64,000 nucleotides of DNA, from positions 98-64,097 of the forward strand of contig CAYRUY010000003.1 in NCBI GenBank assembly GCA_964427455.1, read 5' to 3'. The position numbers and the translations under genes are program-made. Numbering within the stretch: position 1 is the stretch's first letter; each line of letters opens with the position of its first letter. Shown here piece by piece: positions 19,683 to 58,557 of this stretch. Origin of the DNA: an uncultured Candidatus Bathyarchaeia archaeon. Lineage in GTDB: Archaea; Thermoproteota; CALKCG01; B24; JAWCPE01. Below the pieces are notes generated by a model, which was not told the origin of the DNA, searched no databases, and saw only the letters and a program-made list of their open reading frames with translations.

Positions 19683-20114
19683 TTATCTCTGCGGCCCGCC
19701 ATTGGCCTGAAGCCGCTCCGTGAGGACGGCGACGACTGCGTACATCATACTCAGTATGATGAGGCTGGGAGCCAACGAAGAAGCCCTTAGGCTAACGGAG
19801 GCTTCGTCAAGCAAGAGCACGACCACGGGCACAAGGACGATGCTCATCGCCACGCTCAGAAGTACTCTTTCTATGTCGTTCAAACTCCCCCGCGGAAAGA
19901 GAGCTCTTGTAAAGCAGTAACCGGGCAGCCAGAAGACGAGGAGAAAGCTCCACGCCAGCTTGAGCAACGTGTTCAGCGGCTCGCTCAGACCAGGCAGCAG
20001 CGCAATTGCGGCGACGGCTAAGCCAACAGCTCCGACCGCCCAAAACCAGAGGGCTCTAGCAGAAGTCAACTGAGAAGGGCCCTCAGAACCTGCGTTCATG
20101 GCGCCTTTCACCAT
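19683..20114 (-). CDS. Small integral membrane protein, unknown function
   Basis: A 143-aa product with three or four hydrophobic helices. Confidence 0.35.
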   Translation of the reverse strand: MVKGAMNAGSEGPSQLTSARALWFWAVGAVGLAVAAIALLPGLSEPLNTLLKLAWSFLLVFWLPGYCFTRALFPRGSLNDIERVLLSVAMSIVLVPVVVLLLDEASVSLRASSLAPSLIILSMMYAVVAVLTERLQANGGPQR

Positions 20115-20455: not shown

Positions 20456-21586
20456 ATGCTAGTCTCCCTACCAGCTCTCTCAGTTGCGCCCCTATCCACG
20501 ATACAGGCTTCCCATGTGGTCAGCTCTGAACGCCCACCTAACAGTACTTGCACTCCTATCGAGTCAAACGTGAACGCTCGGAACCCCTTCATCTTCGACG
20601 TATGGATCACTTGGAGAGACGGAGCGCGAGAGCACGTACAGATCTCCCGAGACGGCTTCTTCGCCCTAGATGGGGTTAGAAGGAGGCTGATAGGCTTCGA
20701 CCTTGGCACGACCGGAATGGCGAGGGCCTTCTGGGACGACAATGACCTGAAGGTCATCGAAAAGGAACTCGGCTACCTAGAGTCCTTAGGCGTAAGGCTC
20801 ATCGCCTTAGACCTTTTCTATGTAGGGAAGGACAGGGAGCGAGCGCTCTATACGCCCGTCCTAGACATGCTGTTCGAGCATAAGATGTTCGTCTTCGCCG
20901 CGTTGATAGGGAAGGGTTTGCCGGGCTTCAGTCTGGCCGGGCCTAGGAACTCCACGATGAACTTCGCCATCAGACTGAGGGGCCACGGGGCAGACACCAT
21001 GGGAGACTGGGCCCATCGGTGGCTTGACATCGTGACAAGCTACCGGAATGTAGTTGCCCTGTCTATTGAGAATGAGCTCGATGTGCCTCCGCAGGGCTTA
21101 TCCTACTCAGCTGAGAACGTCGCCGAGTACCTACGATGGCTGTTCGGACTAGTCCGGTGCGAGACAAGACTGCCCTTGACCTCGAAGCTGACGGCTGAGA
21201 CGAACGTCAGGCTAGATGTCAAGAAAACTGTTCTATCGCTGGTGGACTTCGCGGCTATGGACGTGTATGCATACGACTTGACGGCCCTGCATGAGAAGCT
21301 CGACCGGGCCATCGCCTTCCTCACTGTGAGTGGGCATCGTCAAACCGGATGGTGGGCTTCGGAACTCAACGGGAAAACGGAGCCAGACCCGGCGATTGTA
21401 TGGAAGATGGATGCTTCGAAGCTAACGGCGGCATACATTGATTCAGCGTTCGAGCATGGTGCCAGCGTCGTTGTTCTCTTTCCCATGAATTGCGCGCGGC
21501 AACCTGATGCTGCTTTCTTTCACGCCGATGGGATGCCTAGTCCGGCCCTTGTCTCTCTGTCATCGTACATGCGGAGACTTCGCTGA
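20456..21586 (+). CDS. Glycoside hydrolase-like (GH5-type TIM barrel?) protein with a possible signal peptide
   Basis: 'LSIENELDVPP' resembles the NE(P) catalytic-acid motif. A hydrophobic N-terminus is present. Confidence 0.35.
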   Translation: MLVSLPALSVAPLSTIQASHVVSSERPPNSTCTPIESNVNARNPFIFDVWITWRDGAREHVQISRDGFFALDGVRRRLIGFDLGTTGMARAFWDDNDLKVIEKELGYLESLGVRLIALDLFYVGKDRERALYTPVLDMLFEHKMFVFAALIGKGLPGFSLAGPRNSTMNFAIRLRGHGADTMGDWAHRWLDIVTSYRNVVALSIENELDVPPQGLSYSAENVAEYLRWLFGLVRCETRLPLTSKLTAETNVRLDVKKTVLSLVDFAAMDVYAYDLTALHEKLDRAIAFLTVSGHRQTGWWASELNGKTEPDPAIVWKMDASKLTAAYIDSAFEHGASVVVLFPMNCARQPDAAFFHADGMPSPALVSLSSYMRRLR

Positions 21587-21654: not shown

Positions 21655-23457
21655 TCACGGCACCGGGTTGGGCCGCTCGTAGAGCCTCAATTCACCATTG
21701 TCGTACACCTTGGCTGTGTCACGGAGGTCGAGTTCCTTGAGGCTTCCCGGTATCACGCCGTATCGGCTGAGAAGGAGAGTCGCAGACCTCTCAGTGTGGA
21801 CAAAGCAAGTCCAAGGCACCGTGGCCAAACGGGAGCTGTTCCCTACCATGCCAGGGTCTAGTTCAGCTCTCAAGAAGACATTCGACCCATCTTGAAAGGC
21901 GTACCTCAATCGGATCAGCGTCAGGTCGCTGTCGCTGAACACTCTATGGTAGCGGAGGCTCTGTGCTCGTAGGAATTCAATAGCAGCCATCTCAGCCAGC
22001 GATGTCTGCCGTTGACTCTCCGTGTAGTTGACTGCCAGAAAGTTCAAGGGCACAAGTGCCACCGCGAGAGTAGCCAAGACAGCAACGACTTGCCTCATCC
22101 TCACTGCCGTGGGCTTTGAGACCAGGCTTCTTGTACACAAGATCGCAACCACGGGCGCCGCGACTCCCCATGCCCGGTCTCCGTAGAGGCCTCCTGTAGC
22201 AACCCAAGCGAGCACCGTGCTCACGGCTGCGCCAAGCAGAATGCTTGAGAAGAAGACCTCTTCGGCCTCCAATCGATGCGACCGCTTGGTTGCTTTGAAC
22301 AAGCTCCGGGCGAGCCCAGCGAGAGATGGGGCTACGGTAATGCCGAGCAAGCCGAACGTCACGCCACGAATGACTTGAGAATAGGCTGGCTGGTAGGCGG
22401 GGCGGAACAATCCCTCGCTAAGCCTGAATTCTCCCAGTGTTACTGCGTCCCACAGCCTACGAACACTGGCGGATAGCAGCGAGGCGCTCGTGCCTAAGGC
22501 GACAGTTCGGACGGTCCACCAAGCGGCGATAGATGTCAAGAAGAGGATGACTGCAGGCCCTGTGATGGCGCTGGTCAATGGCCTACGGGTTGCACGGTTG
22601 AGGACAAGGAAGACGACGAACACAGGGAAGAGCAGGAGCGAAGTGACTGGGTGCAGCATTACAACGCTGAAGAGCAGGAGAGTGAACAGAACCCTCGTGC
22701 TCCTCTGCCGGTCAAGGCCGCGGTACATGAATGGTAAGATAAGCAAGGAGAGAAAGTAGGCGACTGTCTGGGGCGAATAGTGCTGATGGTTGAGAATCAA
22801 AGAGTTTGGCGTCAAGCTGAAGACGAGAAGACAGAGAAAAGCGTCTCTTGGGTGGAAGAAGAGGAGGAAGAGCCTCATTGATGCGGCTCCGATGAGAAGG
22901 ATGAAGATAACTGCCAGAGACTTGCTTACGTCAAGGACGGGCAGGCCTGCAAGAGTGCTGAAGGCCCCATGCAAGATGAAGGAGCTAGGCCACAGTAGGT
23001 ACCGGTTCAAGCCGGGCTCTACTCCAGCAGAGACCAACACGTACGTTGTCTCGGAGTGAGCGAAGGTATCCCAGTACCTAACCCCAGGTTCAGCCGCAAC
23101 AAGATAACCCCAAAGGAGGCCGAAGACGATCGCTCCCCAGACCACAGTCTCGAGCGCGCCTTCATTCCGCCTCGACACGAACGGGAACACAAGGCCATAG
23201 CCCAGCGCCGCCCAGAAGAGGGGAGAGACCGCTTCATAGAGATCGAGGCCCAGCGTGTTCTCGAAGAAAACGGGTGTAGCACAGGAAGCCACCGCGAGCA
23301 CGGCGAGTATGACTAGCGGGACCGCCCTGCTTACCTGAGTGGGAACTCGACCGTTGATTCCGCTTGCCATCAGCAGATCGAGCCGCCTTTCTCCACAAGA
23401 GCTGCCCGGAGGCAACTCTGTGGCTCGTGGACGGTGGATGCTCGAGAGACCGAACAA
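21655..23457 (-). CDS. Polytopic membrane protein, putative GT-C-fold glycosyltransferase
   Basis: A 600-aa protein with at least 12 predicted TM helices and a C-terminal soluble domain, located inside a glycosylation gene island. I saw no WWDYG motif. Confidence 0.35.
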   Translation of the reverse strand: MFGLSSIHRPRATELPPGSSCGERRLDLLMASGINGRVPTQVSRAVPLVILAVLAVASCATPVFFENTLGLDLYEAVSPLFWAALGYGLVFPFVSRRNEGALETVVWGAIVFGLLWGYLVAAEPGVRYWDTFAHSETTYVLVSAGVEPGLNRYLLWPSSFILHGAFSTLAGLPVLDVSKSLAVIFILLIGAASMRLFLLFFHPRDAFLCLLVFSLTPNSLILNHQHYSPQTVAYFLSLLILPFMYRGLDRQRSTRVLFTLLLFSVVMLHPVTSLLLFPVFVVFLVLNRATRRPLTSAITGPAVILFLTSIAAWWTVRTVALGTSASLLSASVRRLWDAVTLGEFRLSEGLFRPAYQPAYSQVIRGVTFGLLGITVAPSLAGLARSLFKATKRSHRLEAEEVFFSSILLGAAVSTVLAWVATGGLYGDRAWGVAAPVVAILCTRSLVSKPTAVRMRQVVAVLATLAVALVPLNFLAVNYTESQRQTSLAEMAAIEFLRAQSLRYHRVFSDSDLTLIRLRYAFQDGSNVFLRAELDPGMVGNSSRLATVPWTCFVHTERSATLLLSRYGVIPGSLKELDLRDTAKVYDNGELRLYERPNPVP

Positions 23458-23583: not shown

Positions 23584-24846
23584 TCAATTCATGGCTAGTA
23601 TGCTTCTTCCTTCGCATTGGGCCGGAAGGCTGAGCCCAAGGAGGTCGATTAGGGTTGGAAAGACATCTACTAGGTCTACGATCTCTCGCTCGTCGCCCCG
23701 GAGGTGTTCTCCACTCGAGTAAGCTATCAGAACACCTAGCATCTCGTCATCGTTCAGGTAGCCGTGCATCCCAAGGGTTTGCGCTTGCTCCGCCTGGAAG
23801 AAGTTAGGGCAGACCAAGAAGCCTCTATCCAACCAGAAGAGGACGTCACCATACGCGTTGTCAGGGAAATCGATGTGGAGCTGCCTCATCTCCTGACGAG
23901 ACAGCACATGCCCGTTTCGCGTGTCGTCAAGCATCTCCAAGACCTCACGTCTAGCTCTAGCGGTATTGAACCAGAACCTTGCTAAAGTGGCATCTAAGAA
24001 ACAGAGGTAATCGTCGCCGATACGGGAGTTCAGCTTCCTAAGGTTTCCCCATACGTCAACCACGCCCGTTACCCTCCGCATTCCGTGGTCGCTAACGACT
24101 AGAACCTTGTACCCGCCGTAGCGTTCGCGCAGAGCGTCACATAGATGCTTCAGCTCCTCATCGATCAGGCGTAACGTCTCTCCCAGTGCTGCCATGTCAG
24201 GACCATACCTGTGCCCCAATACGTCTAGGTCGCCGAGATGCACCAAGTAGGCCTCATACCGAACCTTCGCTGTCAGTGATCTTCGAGCTTGCTTGAAGAA
24301 GCTCGCGTACCGCTTCGAGCCTATGCTTCGGAACGTGTTCAGGGCGTCAAGATAGTTCACTCCGTTCCCATCGCAGACCGAGAGCAGGTTCACGAGATGG
24401 CCGAGCTCCTGCTTGAGAGGCCGCTTGTTGACGCACAGGTCAAAGCAAGGAAGTTGATCAAGAGGGATGTAAGCTGGGTCAGGCCGAACCGTTCTCGTGA
24501 CCACTTTGGTCACCATTCTGATCGCTACCTTCGCCAGTGGGTTGTATGACGCCGCTCCTTTGAGGAAGCTAAAGGGCTGAACCCAGCGGAAGGGCGAGTT
24601 CTTGGGATCGTACCGGTACCAAGTGAAATGTCCGCTGGTCTCAGGGTAGGCTCCCGTCAGCATAGGCGTTCTCTGGGTGAACCCCGCGGTTGTTCTCACC
24701 CTCTTCTGGACGCCCTCTAGGCCCATTTCATGGAGCCAAGGAGTGTATTCCTTGGACACGTAGTCGTAGCGACAGCCATCGAGATAGATGAAGAGGGTTG
24801 GCGTTCTCATTGCTCTGCTACTTCCGAGAGATGCTCCATGCTTCAT
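23584..24846 (-). CDS. Alkaline-phosphatase-superfamily enzyme (type I phosphodiesterase/nucleotide pyrophosphatase-like)
   Basis: 'VLVVSDHGM' is the metal-site motif and 'TLFIYLDGCRYDY' is an N-terminal metal-ligand region. It is 420 aa. Confidence 0.6.
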   Translation of the reverse strand: MKHGASLGSSRAMRTPTLFIYLDGCRYDYVSKEYTPWLHEMGLEGVQKRVRTTAGFTQRTPMLTGAYPETSGHFTWYRYDPKNSPFRWVQPFSFLKGAASYNPLAKVAIRMVTKVVTRTVRPDPAYIPLDQLPCFDLCVNKRPLKQELGHLVNLLSVCDGNGVNYLDALNTFRSIGSKRYASFFKQARRSLTAKVRYEAYLVHLGDLDVLGHRYGPDMAALGETLRLIDEELKHLCDALRERYGGYKVLVVSDHGMRRVTGVVDVWGNLRKLNSRIGDDYLCFLDATLARFWFNTARARREVLEMLDDTRNGHVLSRQEMRQLHIDFPDNAYGDVLFWLDRGFLVCPNFFQAEQAQTLGMHGYLNDDEMLGVLIAYSSGEHLRGDEREIVDLVDVFPTLIDLLGLSLPAQCEGRSILAMN

Positions 24847-25987
24847 TCACCGCATCCCTGACCTGAACCCACTGTGCGATCGGGCTTCGCAGCCTCGACG
24901 TTCTTGTCGCATGAGGCAGTAGGCTGGCCACCAACCTTGAGGCTTCGCCCAACGCTTCCTCGTTGATCCCGTCCGGCTGAATCGCGAGCGCCAGGTCGAA
25001 CAGAGCTGCGTGAACGATAGCTGAGGGAGATGCATCAGGTCGGAGGAAAGCCCGAGAGAGCCCAAACTTAGCCATTGCCAAACCATTGTACGCGAGGTGA
25101 TCGAGCAATCCATAGCCGCTGCTCTTCAGGAAGGCTTGAGAGAAGCCCGCCAAGCCCTCCGCCCCGCGTCCGCTGCACCTTTCCCAACAGTACCTGATCG
25201 TGTTCAGAAGATGGGTTCTTGCGAGAAGCCAAACGTGGAGAAGGTTGTCATAGTCGGCGAACACCGGCTGAAGCTTGAAACGCGTCGCCTTCTCGAAGTC
25301 GTGCAAGAGCTCTAGAGTGAACTCGGGAAGGCTCTGGGGACTTGTCGATGCTAGTTCTCTCAGATTGAGGAGCCTCCGCCGATAGCTGTAGTGGTACATA
25401 CCTCTTAGAGTGAGCAGGGCATCCCCGCACGCCAAGATTCCCTTGACAGACTCAAAGACCAGCTTCCGCTTCAACGAAACAGGGGGTTCGTCCACTAGGA
25501 AAAGAGGGTCAAACTCCCTCATCATGCCCTGCATACGGTTGAACACCAACCGGAGGCCATCGCAAGGGTCGATCTCATTCTCGGCTTGGATAGGTATGCG
25601 TCGTAGGACTCTGCCATCGCCGAAGAGCAACCTGCTTCCAAACTTCAACTCATACCAGAAGATCCGTCTTCCGGCAAATGGCAGCAAGACGTTCCAGAAC
25701 ATCCCGAAATCAACGTGGTCTATCCCGAAGCTCGATGCCAACTTCGCGGCCGGCAGCCACGTTTTCGCCAGACGGGGATACCGAGTTACCGCTAGGAGAT
25801 CGTAGTCTCCAAGAGGCAGGACTTTGCCTGCTTCCCGGACGACACTTCCTTCACCTCTCGAGAAGCCACCCATAAAGACTAGGGCAACAGTATCTTTGAC
25901 TCCCCTGAGTACTTCATCTCTCACCTGCTCGATGTGAGACGTGATCGTTCTGACGATCTGCGGATCGTCCTGCACGGTATAGGTCAT
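24818..25987 (-). CDS. Pol-beta-superfamily nucleotidyltransferase-fold protein (LicD/fukutin-like or other NTase)
   Basis: 'MGGFSRGEGS-x12-DYDLLAV' fits the hG[GS]x9-13DhD signature, with a later 'HVDFG'. A long helical C-terminal region follows. Its last 29 nt overlap the downstream AP-superfamily gene. Confidence 0.4.
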   Translation of the reverse strand: MTYTVQDDPQIVRTITSHIEQVRDEVLRGVKDTVALVFMGGFSRGEGSVVREAGKVLPLGDYDLLAVTRYPRLAKTWLPAAKLASSFGIDHVDFGMFWNVLLPFAGRRIFWYELKFGSRLLFGDGRVLRRIPIQAENEIDPCDGLRLVFNRMQGMMREFDPLFLVDEPPVSLKRKLVFESVKGILACGDALLTLRGMYHYSYRRRLLNLRELASTSPQSLPEFTLELLHDFEKATRFKLQPVFADYDNLLHVWLLARTHLLNTIRYCWERCSGRGAEGLAGFSQAFLKSSGYGLLDHLAYNGLAMAKFGLSRAFLRPDASPSAIVHAALFDLALAIQPDGINEEALGEASRLVASLLPHATRTSRLRSPIAQWVQVRDAVNEAWSISRK

Positions 25988-26072: not shown

Positions 26073-27224
26073 TCAGGTGCGTTCGGCGACTAGACGAAAG
26101 AGCGTTGCCTCGTACTTCGACGCGATGTTCGACCATGTATGTTCCCTAGCGTGAGCCCACGCGAGGCGTCCAGCTGCCTCGAAGGCATCTGGGTTCTTGA
26201 CGCAGTCATCGAAGACCTGGAGGTACTCTTCTTCGGTCTGAGCGGGCCGGATGAATGAGCTGGCTTCCCTGATGATCTCGCCGAGGGGCGTAGCTGCTAC
26301 AGGTCTTCCTCTTGCAAGATACTCCCAGAGCTTGTTAGGGTAGAGGAAGTGCGTGATTGCTTTCGAAGGGTCCAGTGGGATGGTGCAAACATCCATTGCG
26401 TCGATGTGGCCCGGCACCTCGGCGGCAGGCAGGTCGGTCACCTGTACCAGACGCTTGCCCAATCTGAGGTCTCGCATCCACTTGCGCAGCTTAGCGCCCA
26501 GAGCTGTGCTGTTCGGTCCCACCAACAGGAGCCTTACGTCCGCCTTCTTGGTCATCCGTTTCATCGCTCGCAGCAAGGGCTCGAAGTTGTGATAGTCTCT
26601 CACTGCGCCGACGAAGCCGACGACGAAAGACTCGGTCAAACCATATCTTTCACGGATCTCGTCTCTTCCAGATGCCTGCGACAGGAAGCTGTCATCGACG
26701 CCATTCGTGATGAGCCGCACCTTGGCACCTAGACGCGTCGCATACTCTGCCAGTGTCGTCGATGACGCAACGCACAGGTCTGCCCGGCTCAAAGTGCGCC
26801 TGAGGAGCATTTCAAGCAAAAGTCTTCCGAAGAAACGTAGGGAACTAGAACCGGGCAGATACTCTACCCCTGACAGCGGGAAATGATCTGAAAGGTCGAA
26901 GAGGCAGAGCTCCGCCGCTCTCAACCTTGCTGCGGCATATGCAGGAAGGAGGTTTGAAAGAACCATCACGTCGAAGCCCTGACCGCGAAGAATAGTGCGC
27001 AGCGATTCTCTGTGAGCTATCGAATTGGCTAGATAATATGCCGGGGGCCAACGCCCCGCACGGATACAGCCCCGCGCCTCATGGAGGACCAGACGTGTGG
27101 CTGTCTCTCTTCCCCGCCCGAGAGAGAAGCGTAGAACATGCACCTCGTTTCTACCCGCGATCCTCTCGAAGACGTGGTGCAACCGTGTTGGCGCCGAGGG
27201 CCGAAGCCAATCCGTTGTAGGCAC
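26073..27224 (-). CDS. Glycosyltransferase family 4 (GT-B, retaining)
   Basis: A GT4-like C-terminal domain with an E-x7-E-like region and 'LLLVGPNSTALG'. Confidence 0.6.
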   Translation of the reverse strand: MPTTDWLRPSAPTRLHHVFERIAGRNEVHVLRFSLGRGRETATRLVLHEARGCIRAGRWPPAYYLANSIAHRESLRTILRGQGFDVMVLSNLLPAYAAARLRAAELCLFDLSDHFPLSGVEYLPGSSSLRFFGRLLLEMLLRRTLSRADLCVASSTTLAEYATRLGAKVRLITNGVDDSFLSQASGRDEIRERYGLTESFVVGFVGAVRDYHNFEPLLRAMKRMTKKADVRLLLVGPNSTALGAKLRKWMRDLRLGKRLVQVTDLPAAEVPGHIDAMDVCTIPLDPSKAITHFLYPNKLWEYLARGRPVAATPLGEIIREASSFIRPAQTEEEYLQVFDDCVKNPDAFEAAGRLAWAHAREHTWSNIASKYEATLFRLVAERT

Positions 27225-27323: not shown

Positions 27324-28508
27324 TCACCCTCTGTAAAGATCCTCTAGGCGGGGCAGAACGACATCTGACGTGAAGTGGTCCATCAACCTTCGCCAGCCCC
27401 TTTCTCCCATCTGGGATGCCTCGGCCGGCTCCACTAGGAGCCGCTCTATGGCCGAAGCCAAGACCAGTGGGTCATTCGGTTCCACTAGAGCGCCTGTCTC
27501 ACCATCGACCATTATTTCAGGGAGGCCGCCGACCCTTGACGCGACCACAGGTTTCTTGAAGAGCATCGCTTCAAGGGCTACCGTAGGGCAAGGGTCATGA
27601 TAGATGGACGGAACAACTAGGAGGGTACACTCGCTTAGCTTCTTCTCCACGGTGCTTCGAGAAGCACGGGTCAAGATATCCACGCCTGCGCGCGGCCATC
27701 CCGGCGGGTAGTCGGGATAGCCCACCAGGGTCAAGTCCAGCTGTCGGCGATGCCTCAACTGTCTGAAGGCCTCGAGAAGCACGTGCATGCCCTTGTGCGG
27801 CCTAAGGGCGCCCAGGAAGAGTACCTGTGCAATAGACTTAGCTGGCCCTTCTTCAATCCTGTAGCTTCTCGCATCGATGAAGTTCGGAATCACCACCGGC
27901 GACGCTCGTAGCCGTTTCCTAATCACCGATGCTTGGAACTCGCTGACGGCGACCAGTGAATCTAGTTGGCGCAGAAGATCGAGGGAGGCTATGCTTGAGA
28001 AGAGGAGAGCCCCAGCCTTCAATACGCCAAGCTCCTGCCGTAGGCATGTGAAGCAGCGACGGGAAAGTCTCTGCGCCTCGCACGGTTCATTTGTCTCCCT
28101 CAGTAAGGAGGACTTCGGGCAGCAGAAGAAGTAGTCGTGAATCGAGGCGATAAGCGGTATCTCCTCGAACCTGTGCTTCAGCCTTGCCAGGCTTAACGCA
28201 ACCCTACCGTGGGCATGGACGGCGTCAGGCGTGAAGAGGCGGATCTCCTCTGACACCTTCTCAACTAGACGGGCGTCTGCAAACGGCGGAGCGAACGCGT
28301 TCCTGCAGAGCCCTGGCAGATACGATAGCACGCTCTTCATGCTCTTGACATCGACGCCCTGGTACCGCGCGCACCCGTTGTGGTCTGCAACGACGAGGAC
28401 CCGTACCTCGTGTCCTCGGCTTGCCAGACCAGTCGACAAGGCGCCTACGTGGGCAGCGATGCCTCCTAGTGCTGGTGGGAAGGAATCGGTTAGCAGTAGC
28501 ACCTTCAT
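27324..28508 (-). CDS. Glycosyltransferase family 4
   Basis: 'MKVLLLTDSFPPALGGIAAHV' is the classic GT4 N-terminus. Confidence 0.7.
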   Translation of the reverse strand: MKVLLLTDSFPPALGGIAAHVGALSTGLASRGHEVRVLVVADHNGCARYQGVDVKSMKSVLSYLPGLCRNAFAPPFADARLVEKVSEEIRLFTPDAVHAHGRVALSLARLKHRFEEIPLIASIHDYFFCCPKSSLLRETNEPCEAQRLSRRCFTCLRQELGVLKAGALLFSSIASLDLLRQLDSLVAVSEFQASVIRKRLRASPVVIPNFIDARSYRIEEGPAKSIAQVLFLGALRPHKGMHVLLEAFRQLRHRRQLDLTLVGYPDYPPGWPRAGVDILTRASRSTVEKKLSECTLLVVPSIYHDPCPTVALEAMLFKKPVVASRVGGLPEIMVDGETGALVEPNDPLVLASAIERLLVEPAEASQMGERGWRRLMDHFTSDVVLPRLEDLYRG

Positions 28509-28557: not shown

Positions 28558-29658
28558 TCAGCAGCTACCTGAAACCAGTCGATAGACCTCGAGCGTCTTT
28601 GAAGCAATGCTCTCCCAGGATAGTCCTACCACTTTCTCTCTAGCGTTCCGGCCGTACGCGCGGAGTCTTGCCCTGTCACGCAGCATGTAACAGATCTTCT
28701 GCGCAAGTTCCTTGTGGTCGCGGGGATCATTCAACGTCAAGCCACTCTCATAGTCGACCACCAGACCTCTAAGTCCCGGTGTCCTTGAGCATATGACGGG
28801 CATTCCACTCGCGAGCGCTTCAAGGACCACGATAGGCAGGGATTCGTAGAGGGACGGAAGAACAAAGAGATCGCATTCTTTGAACAGGTCAATGAAACGC
28901 TCGCCATAGACCCTTCCGAGGAACGAGACTTGGTTGCTTAGCCTTAGTTGCTGCGTCATCGACTCTAGCTCTGCGCGGTAGGGACCGTCACCAGCGACCA
29001 GCAGCTCTACCTTGCTGTCCCCGATGTGGTGAAGGGCGAAGAGGATGCTCTGCACGCCCTTGTACTTCTCTAGTCTCCCGACGAAGAGGAGCTTGTTGCC
29101 GCTGCTTGTCCGCGCGATCTTGAAGAAGATCTCGTCAACGCCATTGGGCACATGGACGGCTTTATCTCCGATCCGGACCCCAAGCCTGTCAAGTATCTGT
29201 ACCTCATGGGGTGAGACAACTATGACCTTGGCCATTTGGCGCACAATGAACCTGCCAATCCAACTGTACCCGCTATGGGCGAGCAGCCCCACCTTGAAGT
29301 AGCCTAAGTGAGTCGTCAGGACGCATGGAATCCTGTTCCGTCTCCTAGCTAGGGCAACAGCGAGAGAGGAGAAGGATTGATACTGTAAGGTATGGATGAT
29401 GTCGAAGCCCGAGGCGTCCAAGAGACGGTTCAACAGAGGCCACGAGAAGTAGTATAGCTCTCCAGGAGCGAATGCGGGGGAACGGACGATCGGGACTCCG
29501 TCGACAACCTGGCGTTCAGGAAGGCTGTGCCTTGCATCCGTTGTGAGGACCGTGACCTCAACGCCAAGCTTGGGCATGCACCTCGCTATGGACTCGGCGT
29601 AGCGCTCGACCCCGCCGACCTCTGGGGAGAACCTAGGTGTGACGAGTAGAAGCCTCAA
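28558..29658 (-). CDS. Glycosyltransferase family 4
   Basis: 'MRLLLVTPRFSPEVGGVERYAESIA' is a GT4 N-terminus. Confidence 0.7.
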   Translation of the reverse strand: MRLLLVTPRFSPEVGGVERYAESIARCMPKLGVEVTVLTTDARHSLPERQVVDGVPIVRSPAFAPGELYYFSWPLLNRLLDASGFDIIHTLQYQSFSSLAVALARRRNRIPCVLTTHLGYFKVGLLAHSGYSWIGRFIVRQMAKVIVVSPHEVQILDRLGVRIGDKAVHVPNGVDEIFFKIARTSSGNKLLFVGRLEKYKGVQSILFALHHIGDSKVELLVAGDGPYRAELESMTQQLRLSNQVSFLGRVYGERFIDLFKECDLFVLPSLYESLPIVVLEALASGMPVICSRTPGLRGLVVDYESGLTLNDPRDHKELAQKICYMLRDRARLRAYGRNAREKVVGLSWESIASKTLEVYRLVSGSC

Positions 29659-29796: not shown

Positions 29797-30567
29797 CTAC
29801 CTTCTCGCTCCCAACCTGAGGTACAGCAGAGGACTGACTATGTCCCACCAATCTCGAAGGGGAGCTATCTTCGAGTATCCCCCTTTATGCCTGTAGGGAT
29901 ATCTCTTTGAAACCGGTACCTCCCGTGTTCTATATCCTAGCGTTAACACCTTGTACAAGGTGTAGAACTCTAGGGCATACCCGTCTAGCCATCTCTGCGA
30001 GATATCGATCCTTCCATCGCGGAATACCGAGGCCCTGTAGGCGCGAAAGCCGTTTGTCACGTCAGTGAGATAGCCCCCTACCGCCATTCTCCAGACGAAG
30101 GGGTAGAGTCGGGTGAAGATGGCTCGTAGGATCGGGGTCTTGGCCGCTTTTCCTCCGGGCAGAAACCTTGAGCCTTGGACGTAGTCGTAGCCTTCCTCCA
30201 AGATAGGACGTAGGATTCGAGGAACTTCCCGCGGATCATCCTTCCCATTGCCCGCCATCACCACGATGACCTCGCAGCCAGCGTTCAAAGCGTGATGGAT
30301 GCCCTGTCTCAGGGCGTGTCCAATCCCTCTCCTCTGGGCATTCTCCAAGATGCAAAGGGGAACCTCGGCTTTCTGGCCCTCAGACCGGATCTCCCTGAGA
30401 AGCGCCTCTGTTGGACGGTCAACGATCACATACACTTGGTCGACGCGCACTCCCGCAAAACGGGATAGCACTCTCCCGATCTTGCCCGTTTCTCGGTAAA
30501 CGGGCACCAGAGCTGCCACTCGAGGCCTCATTCGTTGTTCCCTGTCACGATGCGGCGTGTCTGCCAT
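29797..30567 (-). CDS. Glycosyltransferase family 2 (dolichyl-phosphate sugar synthase-like)
   Basis: 'VAALVPVYRETGKIGRVL' is a GT2 N-terminal pattern. It is 256 aa. Confidence 0.6.
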   Translation of the reverse strand: MADTPHRDREQRMRPRVAALVPVYRETGKIGRVLSRFAGVRVDQVYVIVDRPTEALLREIRSEGQKAEVPLCILENAQRRGIGHALRQGIHHALNAGCEVIVVMAGNGKDDPREVPRILRPILEEGYDYVQGSRFLPGGKAAKTPILRAIFTRLYPFVWRMAVGGYLTDVTNGFRAYRASVFRDGRIDISQRWLDGYALEFYTLYKVLTLGYRTREVPVSKRYPYRHKGGYSKIAPLRDWWDIVSPLLYLRLGARR

Positions 30568-30577: not shown

Positions 30578-32086
30578 TTAGGTCTCAGACTCGAGCCTAG
30601 GAAGGGAATTGATCCCCGTGAGGTCCCGGATCGCGGGATTAGTTATTGTCCTGTGGTTCAGGAGGCGTGCGGGGTTGCCTGCTGCGACCGCGTTGTCAGG
30701 TATATCTCGTGTGACAACTGACCCGGCGCCGACCACTGCGTTCCTTCCGATCGTGACTCCGGGAAGTATGACGCTGCTCGCTCCTATCGACGCCCCTCTC
30801 CTAACGCGAGTAGGCAGGAGAAGCCATTCGCCGTTAACGGCGGGGTACTTGTCATTCGTGAAGACGACGTTAGGTCCGATGAAGACATCATCCTCTATTG
30901 TGACGCCTGTCGGGATGAAACTGAACGCCCTTATCTTGCAGTTGTCGCCGACAACGACTCCTTCCTCCATGTATACGTATGCGTCGACCTTGCACCGCTT
31001 GCCTACGCGACACTTGAAGAGGTTGACCTGATCGTGGACTCTGGTTCCAGCGCCGATCTCTGCCCCGGTGATGACTGAGTAAAGGGGCGTGCCCCGGTTG
31101 CGGGCGGGGGTCGGGCTTAAAGTAACCACTCTTTGCTCCTCTGCAGCTCTCCTTGCGGCTCCGAGTAACCTGACAACCTGAGCCCCGATCTGCCCCGAGT
31201 TCTCCAAGACTGGCTTGTCGACGTCTCTGTTCTTTCGGATCGAGTGTGTGAAGTGTCTAAGCTCGCTCGCAATGGTATTGTTCCTCTCGATCCTGATCTG
31301 GTATGCGCGCTCGCGCTCGTGAACCATCAGCGTCTGCGCGAGGCAGTCGACCTTGACTGTTCCCTGAGAGCCTACGATGTTGACCTCTCTGACTTTGGGT
31401 GGAGCAAGCCAGCTTAACTCGATCTGCGCCACTATCTCGTCGTCGAGTTCTGCGATGATGCTCGCCCAGTCGTCAAGCCTGCCTGCTCGATAGGCCTTCG
31501 TGAAACACCTGATCGCTCTAGGCCACCTCCCAAGGAGGTGGTTCAGTATGTCGAAGGGGTGAGGCCCCAGATCAGTGATGATATCGCGACCATTGATCCC
31601 GTCATCTCTGGTCGTCCACTGCAGTCTTACGTAGAAGACGTCGCCGATGAATCCCTCTTCGACCAGCCTTCTGGCCTTCCTCAGAGCATTGTTGAAACGG
31701 AAGATGTGGCCAACGCACAGGACTACTCGCTGCCTTTCTGCCCGCTCAACCAAGTCACAGGCTTCGGTCCACCTTAGTGCGAGAGGCTTCTCGACCAAGA
31801 CGTGTTTGCCTTGCTCCAAGGCGTCCCTGCAGATCGAGTAATGCGTCTCATTAGGGGTACACACATGCACTGCGTCGACCTCGGGGGAGGTGAGCACGCG
31901 CGTGTAGTCCGTTTCGAGATTCCTGACAGCAACGGAGTTGCCGCACCTGCTGAGGTTTGCCTCTGACACATCACAAACGCTGTGCAGTATGACATCCGAG
32001 TCTTCACCTGCCAGCTGTGAGTATTCCTGTGCGATCTTGGTGCCCCAATACCCCACGCCGATGACCGCAACTCTAAGCCTGCCCAT
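30578..32086 (-). CDS. Fusion of an N-terminal Gfo/Idh/MocA oxidoreductase (WbpB-like) with a C-terminal left-handed beta-helix hexapeptide acetyltransferase (WbpD-like)
   Basis: 'LRVAVIGVGYWGTKIAQEY' is the Rossmann motif. The C-terminal half carries hexapeptide repeats ('GAGTRVHDQVNL...VGDNCKIRAFSFIPTGVTIEDDVFIGPNVVF'). Confidence 0.6.
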   Translation of the reverse strand: MGRLRVAVIGVGYWGTKIAQEYSQLAGEDSDVILHSVCDVSEANLSRCGNSVAVRNLETDYTRVLTSPEVDAVHVCTPNETHYSICRDALEQGKHVLVEKPLALRWTEACDLVERAERQRVVLCVGHIFRFNNALRKARRLVEEGFIGDVFYVRLQWTTRDDGINGRDIITDLGPHPFDILNHLLGRWPRAIRCFTKAYRAGRLDDWASIIAELDDEIVAQIELSWLAPPKVREVNIVGSQGTVKVDCLAQTLMVHERERAYQIRIERNNTIASELRHFTHSIRKNRDVDKPVLENSGQIGAQVVRLLGAARRAAEEQRVVTLSPTPARNRGTPLYSVITGAEIGAGTRVHDQVNLFKCRVGKRCKVDAYVYMEEGVVVGDNCKIRAFSFIPTGVTIEDDVFIGPNVVFTNDKYPAVNGEWLLLPTRVRRGASIGASSVILPGVTIGRNAVVGAGSVVTRDIPDNAVAAGNPARLLNHRTITNPAIRDLTGINSLPRLESET

Positions 32087-32302
32087 CGTGTTTCCTACTC
32101 CTTCAGGAAACTCTTTGAACACTCCAAGGGAGCCCTTCACACCGTGCCGCAAGGTCCCGTGAGACCTAGTGGTTTGACAGCGGTCGTGTTGCGCCCAGAC
32201 TTATTCGCCCTGCAGGCCGTGGTCTTGGACGAAGCATGCCGATGAAGCCGGCGCCTGCCCTAGCCCAGCTGATAGGCCAGCCTAGCCTTGTGGAGTATGG
32301 TC

Positions 32303-32950
32303 TCAAGTTCCACCATTGGCGGTGATGCGGTCTGTTCGTAGGCTTCCCTTGGCATTGTATCTCACATCTAGCCAGAACCCCACAAAACGGTTGTCATACA
32401 GCAGCGTGTCGTTTGCTGAGTCGCGCGTCCAGAGTTCGAAGAACAACTCGTAACAGAAGCCTGTTGTCTCCTCGTTCCTGGTCGCGAGACTCTTGACAGT
32501 GACGATCGCGCCGTTGATCTCGATCTTGCGTAGTAGGCATTGACCCGTTGAGATATCCGCCTCAACGACTCTAACCGTGACAGGGGCCTCCCATCCCTCG
32601 TTCTCGTCAAGGGAGACATCGAACCTGCATAGCATAGGTAGGGGACTCGGCTGAGCTCTGCTTGGGTCTGGCAACGGCTCGGTCTCGTTTCTGAGCTTCA
32701 CTATGAGAGAGTATTGAACCGAGTCTCCCATATGGTTTCGTATCCCAACCATGACCTCGATGGGCTCGTCGTCCAGAACGTGAGAGGAGAGCCCTTCTAT
32801 CCTGTGGTTTGCCCCGAGAAGCCAGAGTTCGGTGAAACGCTCCCGGGTGTCATGGCTCGGGAAGAGCCCGTAGATCAGGTTCGAAGACAACACAAATGTT
32901 GTGGCCAACGCAAGAGCTAGAACGGGGAGTCTGTAGGATTCCGAGCGCAT
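32303..32950 (-). CDS. Secreted or membrane-anchored hypothetical protein
   Basis: An N-terminal hydrophobic segment ('LPVLALALATTFVLSS') with no motif I recognised. Confidence 0.35.
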   Translation of the reverse strand: MRSESYRLPVLALALATTFVLSSNLIYGLFPSHDTRERFTELWLLGANHRIEGLSSHVLDDEPIEVMVGIRNHMGDSVQYSLIVKLRNETEPLPDPSRAQPSPLPMLCRFDVSLDENEGWEAPVTVRVVEADISTGQCLLRKIEINGAIVTVKSLATRNEETTGFCYELFFELWTRDSANDTLLYDNRFVGFWLDVRYNAKGSLRTDRITANGGT

Positions 32951-33053
32951 GGTAGTCCTCAGCTGTCTCAAGTCGGCGCGCCAGGAACGGGGTTACGGGT
33001 CACTGCACCTCGCCCCAAGAAGGACGACCAAGGGGTAGGTGTACTCACGCGGT

Positions 33054-42314: not shown

Positions 42315-42360
42315 TTATATGACGGCCGTTATGTCTACTCACGCATAACGATGCGTTATG
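42315..42360 (+). promoter_or_regulatory. TATA-like element plus a triple CGTTATG/CATAACG inverted-repeat array overlapping the tupA start; candidate ModE-type operator
   Basis: GGCTTATATG at 42312-42321. CGTTATG at 42327-42333, CATAACG at 42344-42350 and CGTTATG at 42354-42360. Together these form the 8-nt palindrome GCATAACG-ATG-CGTTATGC. Confidence 0.45.
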
Positions 42361-43365
42361 CCTCGAATCGTCCTAGCTGCAGAGGCCCGTGTGAAAGCCA
42401 AGCCTGTTCTACTCGCGGCGATCGTCGTAGCTTCTATCAGCGTGGGCGGGGCTTACTATCTCCAAGCGACTGTTAAGGAGAGTATCATAGTCTCAACGAC
42501 GACAAGCCTCTACGAGACAGGGGTCTTGGACGTACTGAAGGAAAGGTTTGAGGCCCAGAACCGCGGCGTTAACGTCTCCTTCATCTCGCAGGGCACAGGT
42601 TTGGCGATCCAGACCGCTATGAGGGGAGATGCAGACCTGATACTTGTCCATGACCCCGCCAGAGAGCTCAAGTTTCTCCAAGACGGCTACGGCGTGAACA
42701 GGAAGGTGATCGCCTACAACTTCTTCATCATTGTAGGCCCGAGCGAAGACCCCGGGGGGATCAAAGGCCTGCCCCCTCTCGACGCCCTTCGGAAGATCGA
42801 TTCGTCAGCTCAGCGGGGAGGCGTCGTCTGGGTATCGAGAGGAGACGATTCAGGAACCCATACGAAAGAGAAGCAGCTGTGGAAAGCGGCGAGGCTCAAC
42901 CTCACCGACATCAGGACGGGAAGCTGGTACTTAGAGGCGGGCAGCGGCATGACTGCCACGTTGAAGCTTGCGAACGAGAAGCGCGGCTACACTCTCACGG
43001 ACATGGGCACGTACCTGATGAACCTCAAGAACGGGAACATCGACCTAGTCATGTTAGTCAGCGCAGGCAAGGAGCTGCTCAACGTGTACAGCGTCATAGC
43101 CTGCAATCCGCAAAACGTGAATCTGACGAAGGTCCGGTTCGACGGCGCTATGAGATTCATCACGTTCCTCGCCTCCGACGAAGGACAGACGGTCCTCGCG
43201 GAGTTCGGAAAAGAGCAATACGGTCAAACGCTCTTCTATCCATACGTTAAGGTATTGAAGGATGGAAGCGACCCGGAGAAGGTGGGATGGATACAGGAGC
43301 TTGCCTACTTTGATGGAACCGAGTGCCCGCCTGAGTATAGGTATAAGGCAGGCGATCTCTACTGA
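42358..43365 (+). CDS. tupA: Tungstate/molybdate ABC transporter substrate-binding protein (TupA/WtpA-like)
   Basis: An N-terminal TM/signal segment followed by 'IIVSTTTSLYETGVLDVLKERFEAQ', the TTTS motif typical of TupA. Confidence 0.65.
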   Translation: MPRIVLAAEARVKAKPVLLAAIVVASISVGGAYYLQATVKESIIVSTTTSLYETGVLDVLKERFEAQNRGVNVSFISQGTGLAIQTAMRGDADLILVHDPARELKFLQDGYGVNRKVIAYNFFIIVGPSEDPGGIKGLPPLDALRKIDSSAQRGGVVWVSRGDDSGTHTKEKQLWKAARLNLTDIRTGSWYLEAGSGMTATLKLANEKRGYTLTDMGTYLMNLKNGNIDLVMLVSAGKELLNVYSVIACNPQNVNLTKVRFDGAMRFITFLASDEGQTVLAEFGKEQYGQTLFYPYVKVLKDGSDPEKVGWIQELAYFDGTECPPEYRYKAGDLY

Positions 43366-43479
43366 CAGGAAGGCGGGTCGAAGGCAACGTTCTCACCAGT
43401 CCTTGAATCCCTCTGGGAGGCCCTGGTTGAAGCCTTCAACCTGATAGTCTCAGGGGACCCAGAGGTAGCCTCTGTCACG

Positions 43480-44088
43480 TTGAGGTCCCTGCAGGTTTCA
43501 GGCTTTGCGACGCTCTTAGCCTGCCTCTGGAGCCTACCTGCCGCGACGATTCTCGGCTTGACGAACTTCCGAGGCAAGAGGCTGGCTAGGGGCTTCTTCA
43601 GCGCGTTCATAGGTGTGCCGACCGTCGCCCTCGGCCTCGTGCTGTATATGCTCTTCTCGCGAAGCGGACCCCTAGGAGTCTTCGGCCTCCTCTACACGCC
43701 TCTCGCCATCAGCCTAGGCCAGGCAGTGCTCATAACCCCTATCATAGTGACCTTCGCAGCCTCGGCCCTGGAAAGCGTTGACCCGGAGCTTCGAGACTTG
43801 GCGAGAACGTTAGGCGCCTCTGAGATGCAGACTTCCCTGGCGATCATACGCGAGGCCTCTTTCAGCGTTCTCCTCTCCGTGGTCGCTGCCTTCAACCGAG
43901 CTATCGCGGAGCTGGGAATCGCCCTGATGCTGGGCGGAAACATACGCTACGTAACGCGGGTACTCACAACCTCCATTGCTCTCGAAACAGCGAGGGGCGA
44001 GATCGCCTTCAGCCTCGCACTAGCCATAGTACTCCTAGGCATCGTGTACAGCGTAAGCCTGGCTCTCAACCTACTGAGGAAGGCTTGA
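43480..44088 (+). CDS. tupB: Tungstate/molybdate ABC transporter permease (TupB-like). The true N-terminus probably lies upstream, near 43366.
   Basis: The ORF track starts at TTG 43480, but the same frame is open back to 43366 and encodes '..LESLWEALVEAFNLIVSGDPEVASVTL..', which looks like a permease N-terminus. Confidence 0.6.
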   Translation: MRSLQVSGFATLLACLWSLPAATILGLTNFRGKRLARGFFSAFIGVPTVALGLVLYMLFSRSGPLGVFGLLYTPLAISLGQAVLITPIIVTFAASALESVDPELRDLARTLGASEMQTSLAIIREASFSVLLSVVAAFNRAIAELGIALMLGGNIRYVTRVLTTSIALETARGEIAFSLALAIVLLGIVYSVSLALNLLRKA

Positions 44089-45140
44089 TGATGGCCTCGT
44101 TCCTTGAGACCCGAGAGCTCCAGATGCGCTACGGGCCTACCACCGCCCTGGCCGGCGCGAACCTGCAGATTGAGAAAGGGGAGACCTTGGCTCTGGTCGG
44201 CCCCAGTGGGTCAGGGAAGACGACCCTCCTTAGGATACTGGCGGGTCTGCAGTCGCCTACATCAGGCGAGGCCCTGGTCGAAGGGCGAAGGGAGGACGCA
44301 GCAGGGCTCAGACGGATCGCGTCTATGGTCTTCCAGAGAACCGTGATGTTCAACACGACCGTGTATGGGAACGTGTCGTTCGGGCTCCATACGAAGGGGC
44401 TCGCGAAGAGAGAGATAGAGGAGGAAGTCATGAGAGCACTGAGAAAGGTAGGGCTTCAAGGCTTTGAGAAGAGGAAGGCTCGGAAGCTCTCAGGCGGAGA
44501 GCAGCAGAGGGTCTCTCTAGCCCGAGCGCTCGCGGTTAGACCCGCCCTCCTGCTTCTCGACGAGCCTACCGCCAACCTAGACCCTGCGAATGCATCTGCC
44601 ATTGAACACGTTGTTTCCAACCTAGGGGAGGAGGCAAACACTGTCGTCTTGGCAACCCACAGAATGGACCAGGCTGAGAGACTTGCCGACAGGGTTGCGG
44701 TTCTCAACGAGGGACGCCTTGTCCAGGTTGGAGACGCGAAAGAACTCTTTCGAAGGCCGTCAGGTTTCCTCGCCAGCTTCGGCCAGCTCCGGAACGTTTT
44801 CCACGGCTCTGTCGCGTTATCCAAGGAAGGGTTAGCGGTCATTACGCTAGGAGGCGGAGTTCGGATCGAGGCGGCTTCCAACAGGACGGGAAAGGTTTCG
44901 GTCTTCGTGAGGCCTGAGGATATAATCGTCTCGAAGACCCCGATCGTGTCGAGCGCGAGGAACGTTCTCAGGGGGAGGATCGTCAAGGTCGAGGATCAAG
45001 ATGGCCTCGTCGCGTTAGCTGTTGATGTGGGCCAGGAACTAGCGGCGGTGGTCACAAAGCAGTCGTTCGTCGAGATGGGTTTGAACCTAGGGCTAGAGGT
45101 CTTCCTAGCCTTCAAGGCCTCTTCAGTAGAGGTCGTCTAG
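44085..45140 (+). CDS. ABC transporter ATP-binding protein with a C-terminal TOBE/MOP domain (ModC/TupC/WtpC-like)
   Basis: Walker A 'GPSGSGKTT', the signature 'LSGGEQQRVSLARAL', Walker B 'LLLLDEP', and a C-terminal ~120 aa beta-rich tail. Confidence 0.75.
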   Translation: MMMASFLETRELQMRYGPTTALAGANLQIEKGETLALVGPSGSGKTTLLRILAGLQSPTSGEALVEGRREDAAGLRRIASMVFQRTVMFNTTVYGNVSFGLHTKGLAKREIEEEVMRALRKVGLQGFEKRKARKLSGGEQQRVSLARALAVRPALLLLDEPTANLDPANASAIEHVVSNLGEEANTVVLATHRMDQAERLADRVAVLNEGRLVQVGDAKELFRRPSGFLASFGQLRNVFHGSVALSKEGLAVITLGGGVRIEAASNRTGKVSVFVRPEDIIVSKTPIVSSARNVLRGRIVKVEDQDGLVALAVDVGQELAAVVTKQSFVEMGLNLGLEVFLAFKASSVEVV

Positions 45141-48244: not shown

Positions 48245-48616
48245 CGTTGAGACACCTCTTTGTTGCTCTCTCGCATTGTGACAGCTAGAGAGCCGAAAGG
48301 CTAGTAAGCCCTCCCACATGCTTTATAAGACTTTCGGTCGAAGTTCGGCCGACTTTCAGAGGAACATTAGACTCTACGGTATAAGCGTGCATGCGTGTGT
48401 ACGTGTGCGTATGCGCGTGTCCCGGTCAAGAGGGAGATTGAGGTGAAGAGAGTCACCCATCGACAGCCGATGAGGTGTAGCCACTTGAAGCCCTCAAGCG
48501 CCCCCTTAAGTATGGGGATGCCTTCTATGGCCTTCCAGCCGCTCGGGAAGTAGCCTACACTCTCCTCCTCATGTGGGGAGGGTTCTCCAAGCGGTTAGCG
48601 ACAATAGCGAGGCGCC

Positions 48617-53891: not shown

Positions 53892-54084
53892 CACTTATGC
53901 CTACGGGATTCCCTCGCTCACGCTCTTGAGAGAGCCCAGAGGAAACATCGGGCCTCCTGATCAGGAGCAGGCTCGGGTCTAGACGTCCACCTGCAGGTCG
54001 AGTAGTCTGTAGGTTCGGTAAATCGCTCTAGCCCTCATGCGTGACGGTTCTCAAAGCCTTGGCACCTAACCTGTGCCAGGCGGG

Positions 54085-54657: not shown

Positions 54658-54748
54658 CCTAGCGAGTGACCCTTCCCCTACGCAAAGCTGAACTGCATGC
54701 TGTCGCCGATGAAGGACTCCTGTAGGACGTTATCGAAGGATACCGCTC

Positions 54749-54967
54749 CTACCCCAGCAGGTTCAGATTCTTAACCGTCTCTGTTATAAGTTGTGTTTGT
54801 CTCTCATCGAATCCCTTCTCTTTTAGCAACGAGCTCAACTTGTCCAAGTCATCGTTCTCATTAATTCCTTCGTCGACAAATCTGACAACCCGTCTTGCGT
54901 CGTGGTATCCGATAGAGCCCACAAGCTCCTTATAGAGTGCCCTCTTGCTCAAGGTTCCCAGCTTCAT
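54749..54967 (-). CDS. Small (72 aa) hypothetical protein, translationally coupled to the last gene of the hydrogenase operon
   Basis: A 4-nt ATGA overlap with the NuoB-like gene. It is acidic and helical, and I recognised no motif. Confidence 0.35.
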   Translation of the reverse strand: MKLGTLSKRALYKELVGSIGYHDARRVVRFVDEGINENDDLDKLSSLLKEKGFDERQTQLITETVKNLNLLG

Positions 54968-58550: not shown

Positions 58551-58557
58551 CGCAGCT

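Follow-up and report, generated by a model that had tools for sequence, protein, structure and literature searches.

Gene pair and predicted start sites

The stretch of DNA analyzed here (64,000 nucleotides (nt) from an uncultured Candidatus Bathyarchaeia archaeon, contig CAYRUY010000003.1; hereafter, the window) contains a run of glycosyltransferase genes on the minus strand that is followed by two adjacent genes of the same orientation. The upstream gene encodes a nucleotidyltransferase-like protein of an unnamed family (hereafter NT-like; 24818..25987, 389 amino acids (aa)), and the downstream gene encodes an NPP-like protein of the alkaline phosphatase (AP) superfamily, a member of Pfam family PF01663 (hereafter AP-like; 23584..24810, 408 aa from the conserved start). 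We describe the two protein families, the linkage between them and their genomic context, and conclude that the most likely role of the pair is the tailoring of a glycan, as opposed to immune signaling.

The two minus-strand open reading frames (ORFs) had been noticed previously in an analysis of the nucleotide sequence alone (hereafter, the original prediction), and both are present in the ORF list. The 29-nt overlap of the two genes reported there holds only for the longest AP-like ORF (23584-24846, 420 aa), which begins with the ATG at 24846. The database gene calls for an identical AP-like protein (P0007) and for a relative with 72% identity (P0008) are 408 aa long, and every N-terminus among the archaeal AP-like relatives lies 3-5 residues ahead of a conserved TxFxYLD motif. 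These two observations place the start codon at the ATG at 24810. In the junction sequence, the TAG stop codon of the NT-like gene (24818-24820) is followed by seven nucleotides (cagagca) and then by this ATG, so that the two genes appear to be tightly juxtaposed, with a 7-nt gap, and not overlapping.

Hydropathy analysis revealed no signal peptide and no credible transmembrane segment in either protein, in agreement with the earlier description of the AP-like protein as soluble. The hydrophobic stretch 377-395 of the AP-like protein was considered as a transmembrane segment and rejected, as it lies within the conserved C-terminal part that aligns with solved NPPs.

The NT-like protein belongs to a large family that lacks a model in the libraries searched

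In direct hidden Markov model (HMM) scans, the NT-like protein matched no model in Pfam, NCBIfam or PADLOC (E≤0.01 for Pfam and E≤1 for PADLOC), and bacterial relatives of both proteins likewise matched no NCBIfam model. Comparison of the NT-like protein, and of a profile of 85 diverse family members, with PDB chains yielded non-significant matches only. A word-seeded homology search retrieved six relatives, giving the impression of a tiny family, which was overturned when 1.84 billion cluster representatives were searched exhaustively with a profile: 3,243 of these matched with E values up to 1e-3, and 2,363 with E values up to 1e-10. The NT-like family is therefore large, and it has no model in the libraries searched. 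The upstream 'hypothetical protein' of the pair merits a family model in Pfam or NCBIfam.

The 85 members of the profile were used for all conservation counts given below. Both motifs quoted in the original prediction, G47-S48-x12-D61-Y62-D63 and H91-V-D93-F-G, are present in the NT-like protein, and the three acidic positions of the pol-beta nucleotidyltransferase (NTase) fold, to which the protein had been assigned, are retained across the family. The DxD motif D61-Y62-D63 (25799..25807; this and all other positions within the two genes are on the minus strand) provides the two putative metal-binding carboxylates, conserved in 83/85 (D61) and 84/85 (D63) sequences, and the predicted strand H91-V-D93-F-G (25703..25717) bears the third carboxylate, with D or E at position 93 in 80/85 and V92 in 74/85. 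The part of the assignment that did not stand is the glycine motif, because the GGxxRGE of the NT-like family aligns to GSYARGD of ANT(4')-IIb (a non-significant match, E 0.58), which makes G40-G41, not G47-S48, the canonical G[GS]. These residues open the predicted nucleotide-binding motif G[GS]xxRG[ED]G (GGFSRGEGS, residues 40-48; 25844..25870), in which G40 and G47 are invariant (85/85) and the other key positions nearly so (G/S41 81/85, R44 82/85, E46 81/85). G47-S48 follows a family-specific hairpin insertion that separates G40-G41 from DYD and probably explains the failure of PF01909 to detect the window protein. Weak matches to PF01909 were found in 21/85 relatives (best E 7e-5) and to PF18765 in 7/85.

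Altogether, at least 94% of the 85 members retain the G[GS]xxRGE and DxD motifs and the third carboxylate, and loss of DxD from orthologs, the observation that the original prediction had named as speaking against catalysis, was not seen. Judging from this pattern of conservation, the catalytic residues of the NT-like family appear to be under selection. Several positions in the helical part downstream of the NTase motifs are conserved to a similar extent: E/D143 in 80/85 sequences, N150 in 78/85, R151 in 84/85, K182 in 79/85, D/E189 in 83/85 and Y198 in 78/85. By analogy with the ANT enzymes, D/E143, N150-R151 and K182-x3-ACGDA (182-190), encoded at 25418..25561, are candidates for acceptor-binding or general-base residues.

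Predicted structure of the NT-like protein

Two structural models of the NT-like protein were obtained, one from six sequences (pLDDT 76) and another from 39 sequences (pLDDT 89.7, pTM 0.90); the latter was used for Foldseek comparison with the PDB. The predicted domains are an NTase domain at approximately residues 1-125 and a helical domain from about 140 to 388. The models are all-helical over this latter range, as expected from the original prediction, which had placed a helical region of about 280 aa after the NTase motifs. The best Foldseek match was HalB of the Hailong system (E 1e-3), and the first model produced similar matches. Like HalB, MntA and other MNT antitoxins were recovered with a probability of 1.00, and the superpositions of MntA (target-normalized TM-score 0.53-0.61) and of the MntA, HalB and MNT structures taken together (0.53-0.64, likewise target-normalized) cover an MNT-like core. 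ANT(3'')(9) (7uy4) gave the best superposition that includes both domains, over about 300 columns, with a TM-score of 0.49 when normalized by the target and 0.35 by the query, and with a weak E value of 0.09; the match to ANT(4')-IIb (4ebk) was weak as well (E 0.15). Further matches included the NTase-like protein 3c18 and HI0073, and the HEPN domain 2hsb matched a part of the first model. The structures of LicD, fukutin, FKRP, cGAS, DncV and CD-NTases were all absent from the top 50 matches. From these models, the NT-like protein is predicted to be a nucleotidyltransferase of the MNT/ANT type in which the helical domain is extended.

As is also predicted for the NT-like protein, ANT(3'')(9)/AadA and ANT(4') consist of an N-terminal minimal pol-beta NTase domain (GSxxRG[DE] and DxD motifs) followed by a helical domain, which in the ANT enzymes (KNTase_C/HEPN-like) supplies acceptor-binding or general-base residues, the acceptor being a sugar hydroxyl. 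There is no significant sequence similarity between the two groups, and the NT-like protein differs from the ANTs by the hairpin of 14 residues between RGE and DYD and by a much longer helical C-terminus (389 aa in total compared to about 255 aa). It is encoded in polysaccharide loci and has no resistance context, and it is linked to a family 2 glycosyltransferase (GT2) and to an AP-fold partner. MntA, of the MntA-HepT system, and HalB (7bxo, 6m6w, 9dbi), the best matches to the core, share the same motif set with the NT-like protein. In toxin-antitoxin or defense loci, the function of these enzymes is AMPylation of a protein toxin or synthesis of oligodeoxyadenylate signals, whereas the context of the NT-like genes is glycan synthesis; no HEPN toxin, defense gene or PADLOC match was found for the NT-like family.

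The AP-like protein retains the metal site and has glycine at the position of the nucleophile

The AP-like protein matched PF01663 (Phosphodiest) with an E value of 5e-24 and 85.9 bits (cut-off 23) and also matched solved ENPPs. The VLVVSDHGM motif on which its original assignment to the AP superfamily had been based is found at residue 248 of the 420-aa ORF, and the PF01663 match corroborates this assignment. We aligned 27 AP-like relatives, including bacterial partners of NT-like proteins and the phosphodiesterase halves of fusion proteins. The six putative metal ligands (23764..24780), namely D11 (24778-24780), D196 and H200 (24211-24225), D241-H242 (24085-24090) and H349 (23764-23766), are invariant in all 27 sequences, are kept in all locus partners extracted, and align to the DxxxH, DH and H motifs of solved NPP chains.

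The position of the catalytic nucleophile stands out against this conserved metal site. In the comparison of the AP-like profile with the Xanthomonas NPP (2gsn; E 2e-27), G43 of the AP-like protein (AGFTQR) aligns, with high posterior probability, under T90 of the NPP (LTFPNH), and the spacing from this position to the next TG is nine residues in both the AP-like family and the NPP. The catalytic Thr position is occupied by Gly in 27/27 aligned AP-like relatives, and G[FY] is found at this site in every locus partner examined. By this profile alignment, G43-F44 (24679..24684) corresponds to the Thr nucleophile of the NPPs followed by the retained position of the base-stacking aromatic residue. 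In NPP3, T206 is the nucleophile, activated by Zn2, and F207 stacks against the nucleobase; T206A was made as an inactive variant, and the Thr nucleophile was called strictly conserved across the NPP and AP families (PMC6052110). The aromatic residue retained at F44 is in line with the recognition of a nucleotide moiety, whereas the Gly at the nucleophile position argues against the identification of the AP-like protein as a standard phosphodiesterase in the original prediction. No other Ser or Thr near G43 is universally conserved in the AP-like family. The position of the phosphate-binding Asn (N111 in the Xanthomonas enzyme, by manual count from the aligned motif) is occupied by W64 in the AP-like protein, and the family has an invariant motif of its own, F-x-D-x4-R-x-W (F271, D273, R278, W280).

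With the Thr missing, any phosphoryl or nucleotidyl group transferred by the AP-like protein would have to pass straight to water or to a hydroxyl of the substrate. Alkaline phosphatases engineered to lack the nucleophile, in which Ser102 is changed to Gly or Ala, keep some activity via water attack. The Thr/Ser nucleophile is treated as a defining residue of the AP superfamily and, if the tentative route outlined below is correct, the AP-like protein would be, to our knowledge, the first natural catalyst of this superfamily to work without an enzyme nucleophile.

Compared with the Xanthomonas NPP and ENPP1-7, the AP-like protein shares PF01663 membership, the six metal ligands and the aromatic residue that follows the position of the nucleophile, and differs in having Gly and W64 in place of the nucleophile and the Asn, respectively, as well as in its predicted cytoplasmic location, the NPPs being secreted or ecto-enzymes. 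AP-fold enzymes that decorate cell-surface glycans or lipids with phosphodiester-linked groups include EptA/MCR-1, LtaS, GacH and BcsG. In contrast to the AP-like protein, which shares none of these features, all of them are membrane-anchored, sulfatase-type (PF00884), extracytoplasmic enzymes that use lipid donors and form a covalent intermediate on Thr or Ser.

The pair is linked by adjacency and fusion and is found in glycan loci

At 65% identity, the NT-like gene has its closest genomic relative in a metagenome-assembled genome of Candidatus Bathyarchaeia, and related contigs carry archaeal markers such as eIF-5/eIF-2B and DUF424, in keeping with an archaeal origin of the window. In the archaeal loci, the conserved gene order is GT4 (a family 4 glycosyltransferase), NT-like, AP-like, and the pair remains adjacent in loci of AP-like relatives with 40-54% identity. 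Among six AP-like relatives with 33-100% identity (P0007, P0013, P0014, P0015, P0016, P0021), an NT-like gene is adjacent in all six, identified by the family HMM with E values from 1e-71 to 1e-103; the order of the two genes is reversed in one case. Distant bacterial NT-like relatives (29% identity) are found in the order GT2, NT-like, PF01663, GT4, with the NT-like and PF01663 genes overlapping by 4 nt, and the same loci carry Wzy_C, Wzz, Poly_export and exosortase genes.

The two families are also joined in single polypeptides. Among the best 150 of the 3,243 representatives, eight are fusions of an N-terminal PF01663 domain with a C-terminal NT-like domain. In one of these, P0152 (1054 aa), a methyltransferase domain is joined with PF01663 and NT-like in one polypeptide, suggesting that a phosphate product could be methylated, and in P0170 (1149 aa), the two are joined with a domain of about 370 aa that has no assignment. 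The NT-like domain is also fused to GT2, as seen in P0005; of the same best 150 representatives, four are GT2 fusions.

To survey the context more broadly, we collected 50 loci from GTDB species representatives of more than 10 bacterial and archaeal phyla or classes. A GT2 gene lies at most 150 nt upstream of the NT-like domain, or is fused to it, in 35/50 loci. The AP-like partner is found within 150 nt of the NT-like gene in 15/50 loci and within 8 kb in 20/50, with about five loci ending too near the gene to judge. Because the sample was drawn with the six-sequence alignment and is biased toward members with the KxxLACGDA and NDYDL peptide patterns, this 40% frequency of the partner is not an estimate for the whole family. 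Clustering of the neighbors of the NT-like genes in these loci identified GT4 in 39, WecG/Bac_transf in 25, and Wzy_C and Wzz in 15 each, along with Wzx and sigma-54 regulators.

Every related locus examined (more than 65) is a polysaccharide or glycosylation locus, and no defense-type genes were found among the annotated neighbors, which comprised genes for glycosyltransferases and for the export or polymerization of polysaccharides. The occurrence of the pair outside glycosylation loci in related genomes, which had been proposed as a way to distinguish signaling from glycan synthesis, was accordingly not observed in this set.

As a side observation, two pair-bearing glycan loci encode thymidylate-kinase/dNK-like P-loop proteins and a weak match to APH-type kinases (L014, 5896-6528; L066, 10644-12029 and 12058-13128), which may be responsible for further phosphoryl- or nucleotide-handling steps.

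Predicted function of the pair

Two readings of the pair had been offered in the original prediction: a LicD/fukutin-type transferase with a phosphodiesterase that decorate a glycan, and a CBASS-like signaling module. The context of the pair, with glycan loci everywhere examined, supports glycan decoration as proposed in the first of these, and the assignment to the LicD/fukutin family did not hold. The reading that we favor, to which we give about even chances, is that the pair performs a two-enzyme, cytoplasmic glycan-tailoring step in an archaeal surface-glycan or exopolysaccharide locus, by nucleotidylation dependent on a nucleoside triphosphate (NTP) and subsequent nucleophile-less processing. 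The identities of the acceptor, the nucleotide and the end product, as well as the order in which the two enzymes act, are inferred as follows. The NT-like protein would use an NTP and two metal ions to transfer a nucleoside monophosphate (NMP) onto a hydroxyl or phosphate of a nascent lipid-linked glycan that has just been extended by the neighboring, or fused, glycosyltransferase; such a reaction would be of the same kind as that of aminoglycoside O-nucleotidyltransferases on sugar hydroxyls. The AP-like partner would then bind the nucleotide-bearing phosphodiester or pyrophosphate at its two-metal center and, because Gly replaces the Thr nucleophile, would resolve this intermediate without a covalent enzyme-phosphate, through attack by water or by a hydroxyl of the substrate or acceptor. 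As a result, the glycan would either bear a phosphate or a phosphodiester-linked substituent or lose the nucleotide.

Several observations weigh against this mechanism. The structural matches of the NT-like protein are weak in absolute terms, with the best Foldseek E value at about 1e-3, so that architecture and motifs are the basis of the analogy with the ANTs. In the AP-like family, the second position after the Gly is commonly Ser, Thr or Cys, which could serve as a displaced nucleophile in some members; as a family-wide feature, such a displaced nucleophile was rejected, given that E, I, V or Q occupy this position in several members, including fusions. The AP partner is absent in about half of the sampled loci, mostly those of one gammaproteobacterial type (WecG, Bac_transf, GlmU-like, GT2, NT-like, GH13-like, exosortase); with the NT-like family so often lacking the partner, the AP step is not obligatory. 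Furthermore, a literature search found no paper on either family and no characterized member, the lipocone paper, which was followed as a lead, mentions neither family, and we know of no glycan with the predicted substituent in any carrier of the pair.

Other ways in which the pair might act on a glycan can be envisaged. The NT-like protein might transfer a phospho-X group from an NDP-X donor, such as CDP-glycerol, CDP-ribitol or CDP-choline, to a glycan hydroxyl, with release of NMP, and the AP-like protein might then trim or edit the phosphodiester. LicD, fukutin and FKRP (PF04991) indeed adopt an NTase-type fold that includes DxD, and they work on glycans beside glycosyltransferases, as proposed for the NT-like protein, which is soluble, retains a conserved DxD and adjoins glycosyltransferase genes in a glycan locus. 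However, neither the protein nor any of the 85 relatives matched PF04991 even at E≤1, no structure of this group was among the top 50 Foldseek matches, the family keeps the full GSxxRG[DE] motif set of NTP-using MNT/ANT enzymes, and no cytidylyltransferase or CDP-alcohol synthase gene was found among the genes of the window locus that were scanned, so that a donor of this type seems quite unlikely. Alternatively, the NT-like protein might nucleotidylate an assembly protein or the non-reducing end of the chain, and the AP-like protein remove or convert this mark, providing a reversible control of chain length or flux. The protein AMPylase MntA is among the closest folds, fusion of synthetase-like and hydrolase-like domains is typical of writer/eraser pairs (GGDEF-EAL-type), and the methyltransferase of P0152 recalls WbdD, which caps the chain terminus with a methylated phosphate. 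Nevertheless, we consider a switch or cap unlikely, as the position of the genes amid glycosyltransferase runs, together with their fusion to GT2 catalytic domains, is typical of tailoring enzymes, the loci belong to the Wzx/Wzy/Wzz type, terminal capping being known from ABC-transporter-type loci, and no target protein is evident. The soluble, cytoplasmic nature of both proteins, together with the presence in the locus of a sugar-nucleotide-modifying MocA oxidoreductase/acyltransferase fusion, would also fit the synthesis of an unusual nucleotide-activated small-molecule donor for the neighboring glycosyltransferase. Such a role appears doubtful: the nucleotidyltransferases known to act on sugar-1-phosphates differ in fold (PF00483 type), and one is separately present in many of the related loci, the GT2 and AP-like fusions better fit action on the product of the glycosyltransferase, and AP-fold mutases depend on the nucleophile that the AP-like protein lacks.

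A CBASS-like or other immune function, with a nucleotide second messenger synthesized by the NT-like protein and degraded by the AP-like protein, draws on the weak top structural match to HalB, the signal-making NTase of Hailong defense, and on the capacity of NPP-type enzymes, such as ENPP1, to cleave cyclic dinucleotides. We consider this function highly improbable. There is no PADLOC match, neither the NT-like protein nor any of the 85 relatives matched the CD-NTase or SMODS models of Pfam at E≤1, and the top 50 structural matches of the predicted fold include neither cGAS nor DncV. All of the more than 65 loci are glycan loci without defense-type neighbors, NT-like domains fused to GT2 exist, and the AP-like protein lacks the hydrolytic nucleophile. 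Thus, a false lead is removed: the pair is most likely not a CBASS-like defense module.

Beyond the archaeal locus, two-step tailoring of the kind that we favor for the window might extend to bacteria. Tentatively, the pair, often together with GT2, could represent a widespread, unrecognized route to phosphate-linked groups on bacterial and archaeal polysaccharides, through O-nucleotidylation followed by a nucleophile-less AP-fold step, a generalization that we regard as possible and no stronger. In such a route, water or a sugar hydroxyl would displace the nucleoside or NMP at the two-metal site, and the step could yield a phosphate, a cyclic phosphate or else a phosphodiester bridge. If this is the case, thousands of polysaccharide loci carry an unannotated family of tailoring enzymes, in groups that include Myxococcota, purple sulfur bacteria, Verrucomicrobiota, Planctomycetota, Bathyarchaeia and Thermoplasmatota, and the NT-like family would explain exopolysaccharides with phosphate or other modifications for which no biosynthetic enzymes are known.

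Each of the two folds is well known and already includes enzymes that tailor glycans. What is new is a very widespread NTase family, so far without a model, that is tied to GT2 genes in polysaccharide loci; the Rosetta-stone link of this NT-like family to an NPP-like family; and, as read from the alignments, the replacement of the superfamily nucleophile by glycine, with the metal site intact, in every AP-like relative examined. The glycan context is solid, and the proposed chemistry is testable.

Locus organization and other features of the window

The minus-strand run that includes the pair consists, in order, of a GFO/IDH/MocA oxidoreductase-hexapeptide acyltransferase fusion gene (30578-32152, 524 aa, with a left-handed beta-helix), a GT2 gene (29797-30567), three GT4 genes (28558-29658, 27324-28508 and 26073-27224), the NT-like gene, the AP-like gene and a gene for a 600-aa transmembrane protein (21655-23457), the glycosyltransferases being assigned with Pfam. 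Both the fusion gene and the GT2 gene are also found in the related locus L012. The MocA oxidoreductase/acyltransferase fusion recalls the combination of WbpB and WbpD for 2,3-diacetamido sugars. The 600-aa protein, encoded directly downstream of the pair, has about 10-12 transmembrane segments by hydropathy and a soluble C-terminal part, and has no Pfam match. A homolog is encoded downstream of the pair in L012 (3e-123), and unannotated genes for proteins of 602-607 aa occupy the same or a nearby position in L071/L072 and L069. This protein may be an unmodeled polymerase or a GT-C-like enzyme.

Genes for DUF1616 membrane proteins (Pfam), both on the minus strand, mark the two edges of the glycan locus (19683-20114 and 32303-32971), and the genes beyond them are housekeeping ones. 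DUF1616 genes are also found inside the related archaeal loci L012 and L014. Facing the glycan operon, a plus-strand ORF (20456-21586, 376 aa) has no Pfam match and contains the sequence IENELD, which recalls the catalytic motifs of GH5; at the matching place in the archaeal loci L014 and L069, there is a PF00150 cellulase (GH5) gene. The 376-aa ORF may encode a divergent glycoside hydrolase that trims the polymer.

Scans of the window for tRNAs and with Rfam found nothing. Farther along the window, a minus-strand gene (46250-48319) for a 689-aa protein with DUF6785 and DUF6784 adjoins an ABC-transporter/solute-binding cluster (42358-45140). The region 54000-62000 has a G+C content of 0.50-0.53, compared with 0.57-0.61 elsewhere in the window, and encodes a membrane-bound NiFe-hydrogenase or complex-I-like module, with a fused 30-kDa and 49-kDa subunit (NiFeSe_Hases match), a NuoH-like protein, a 4Fe-4S ferredoxin and a pyridine nucleotide-disulfide oxidoreductase.

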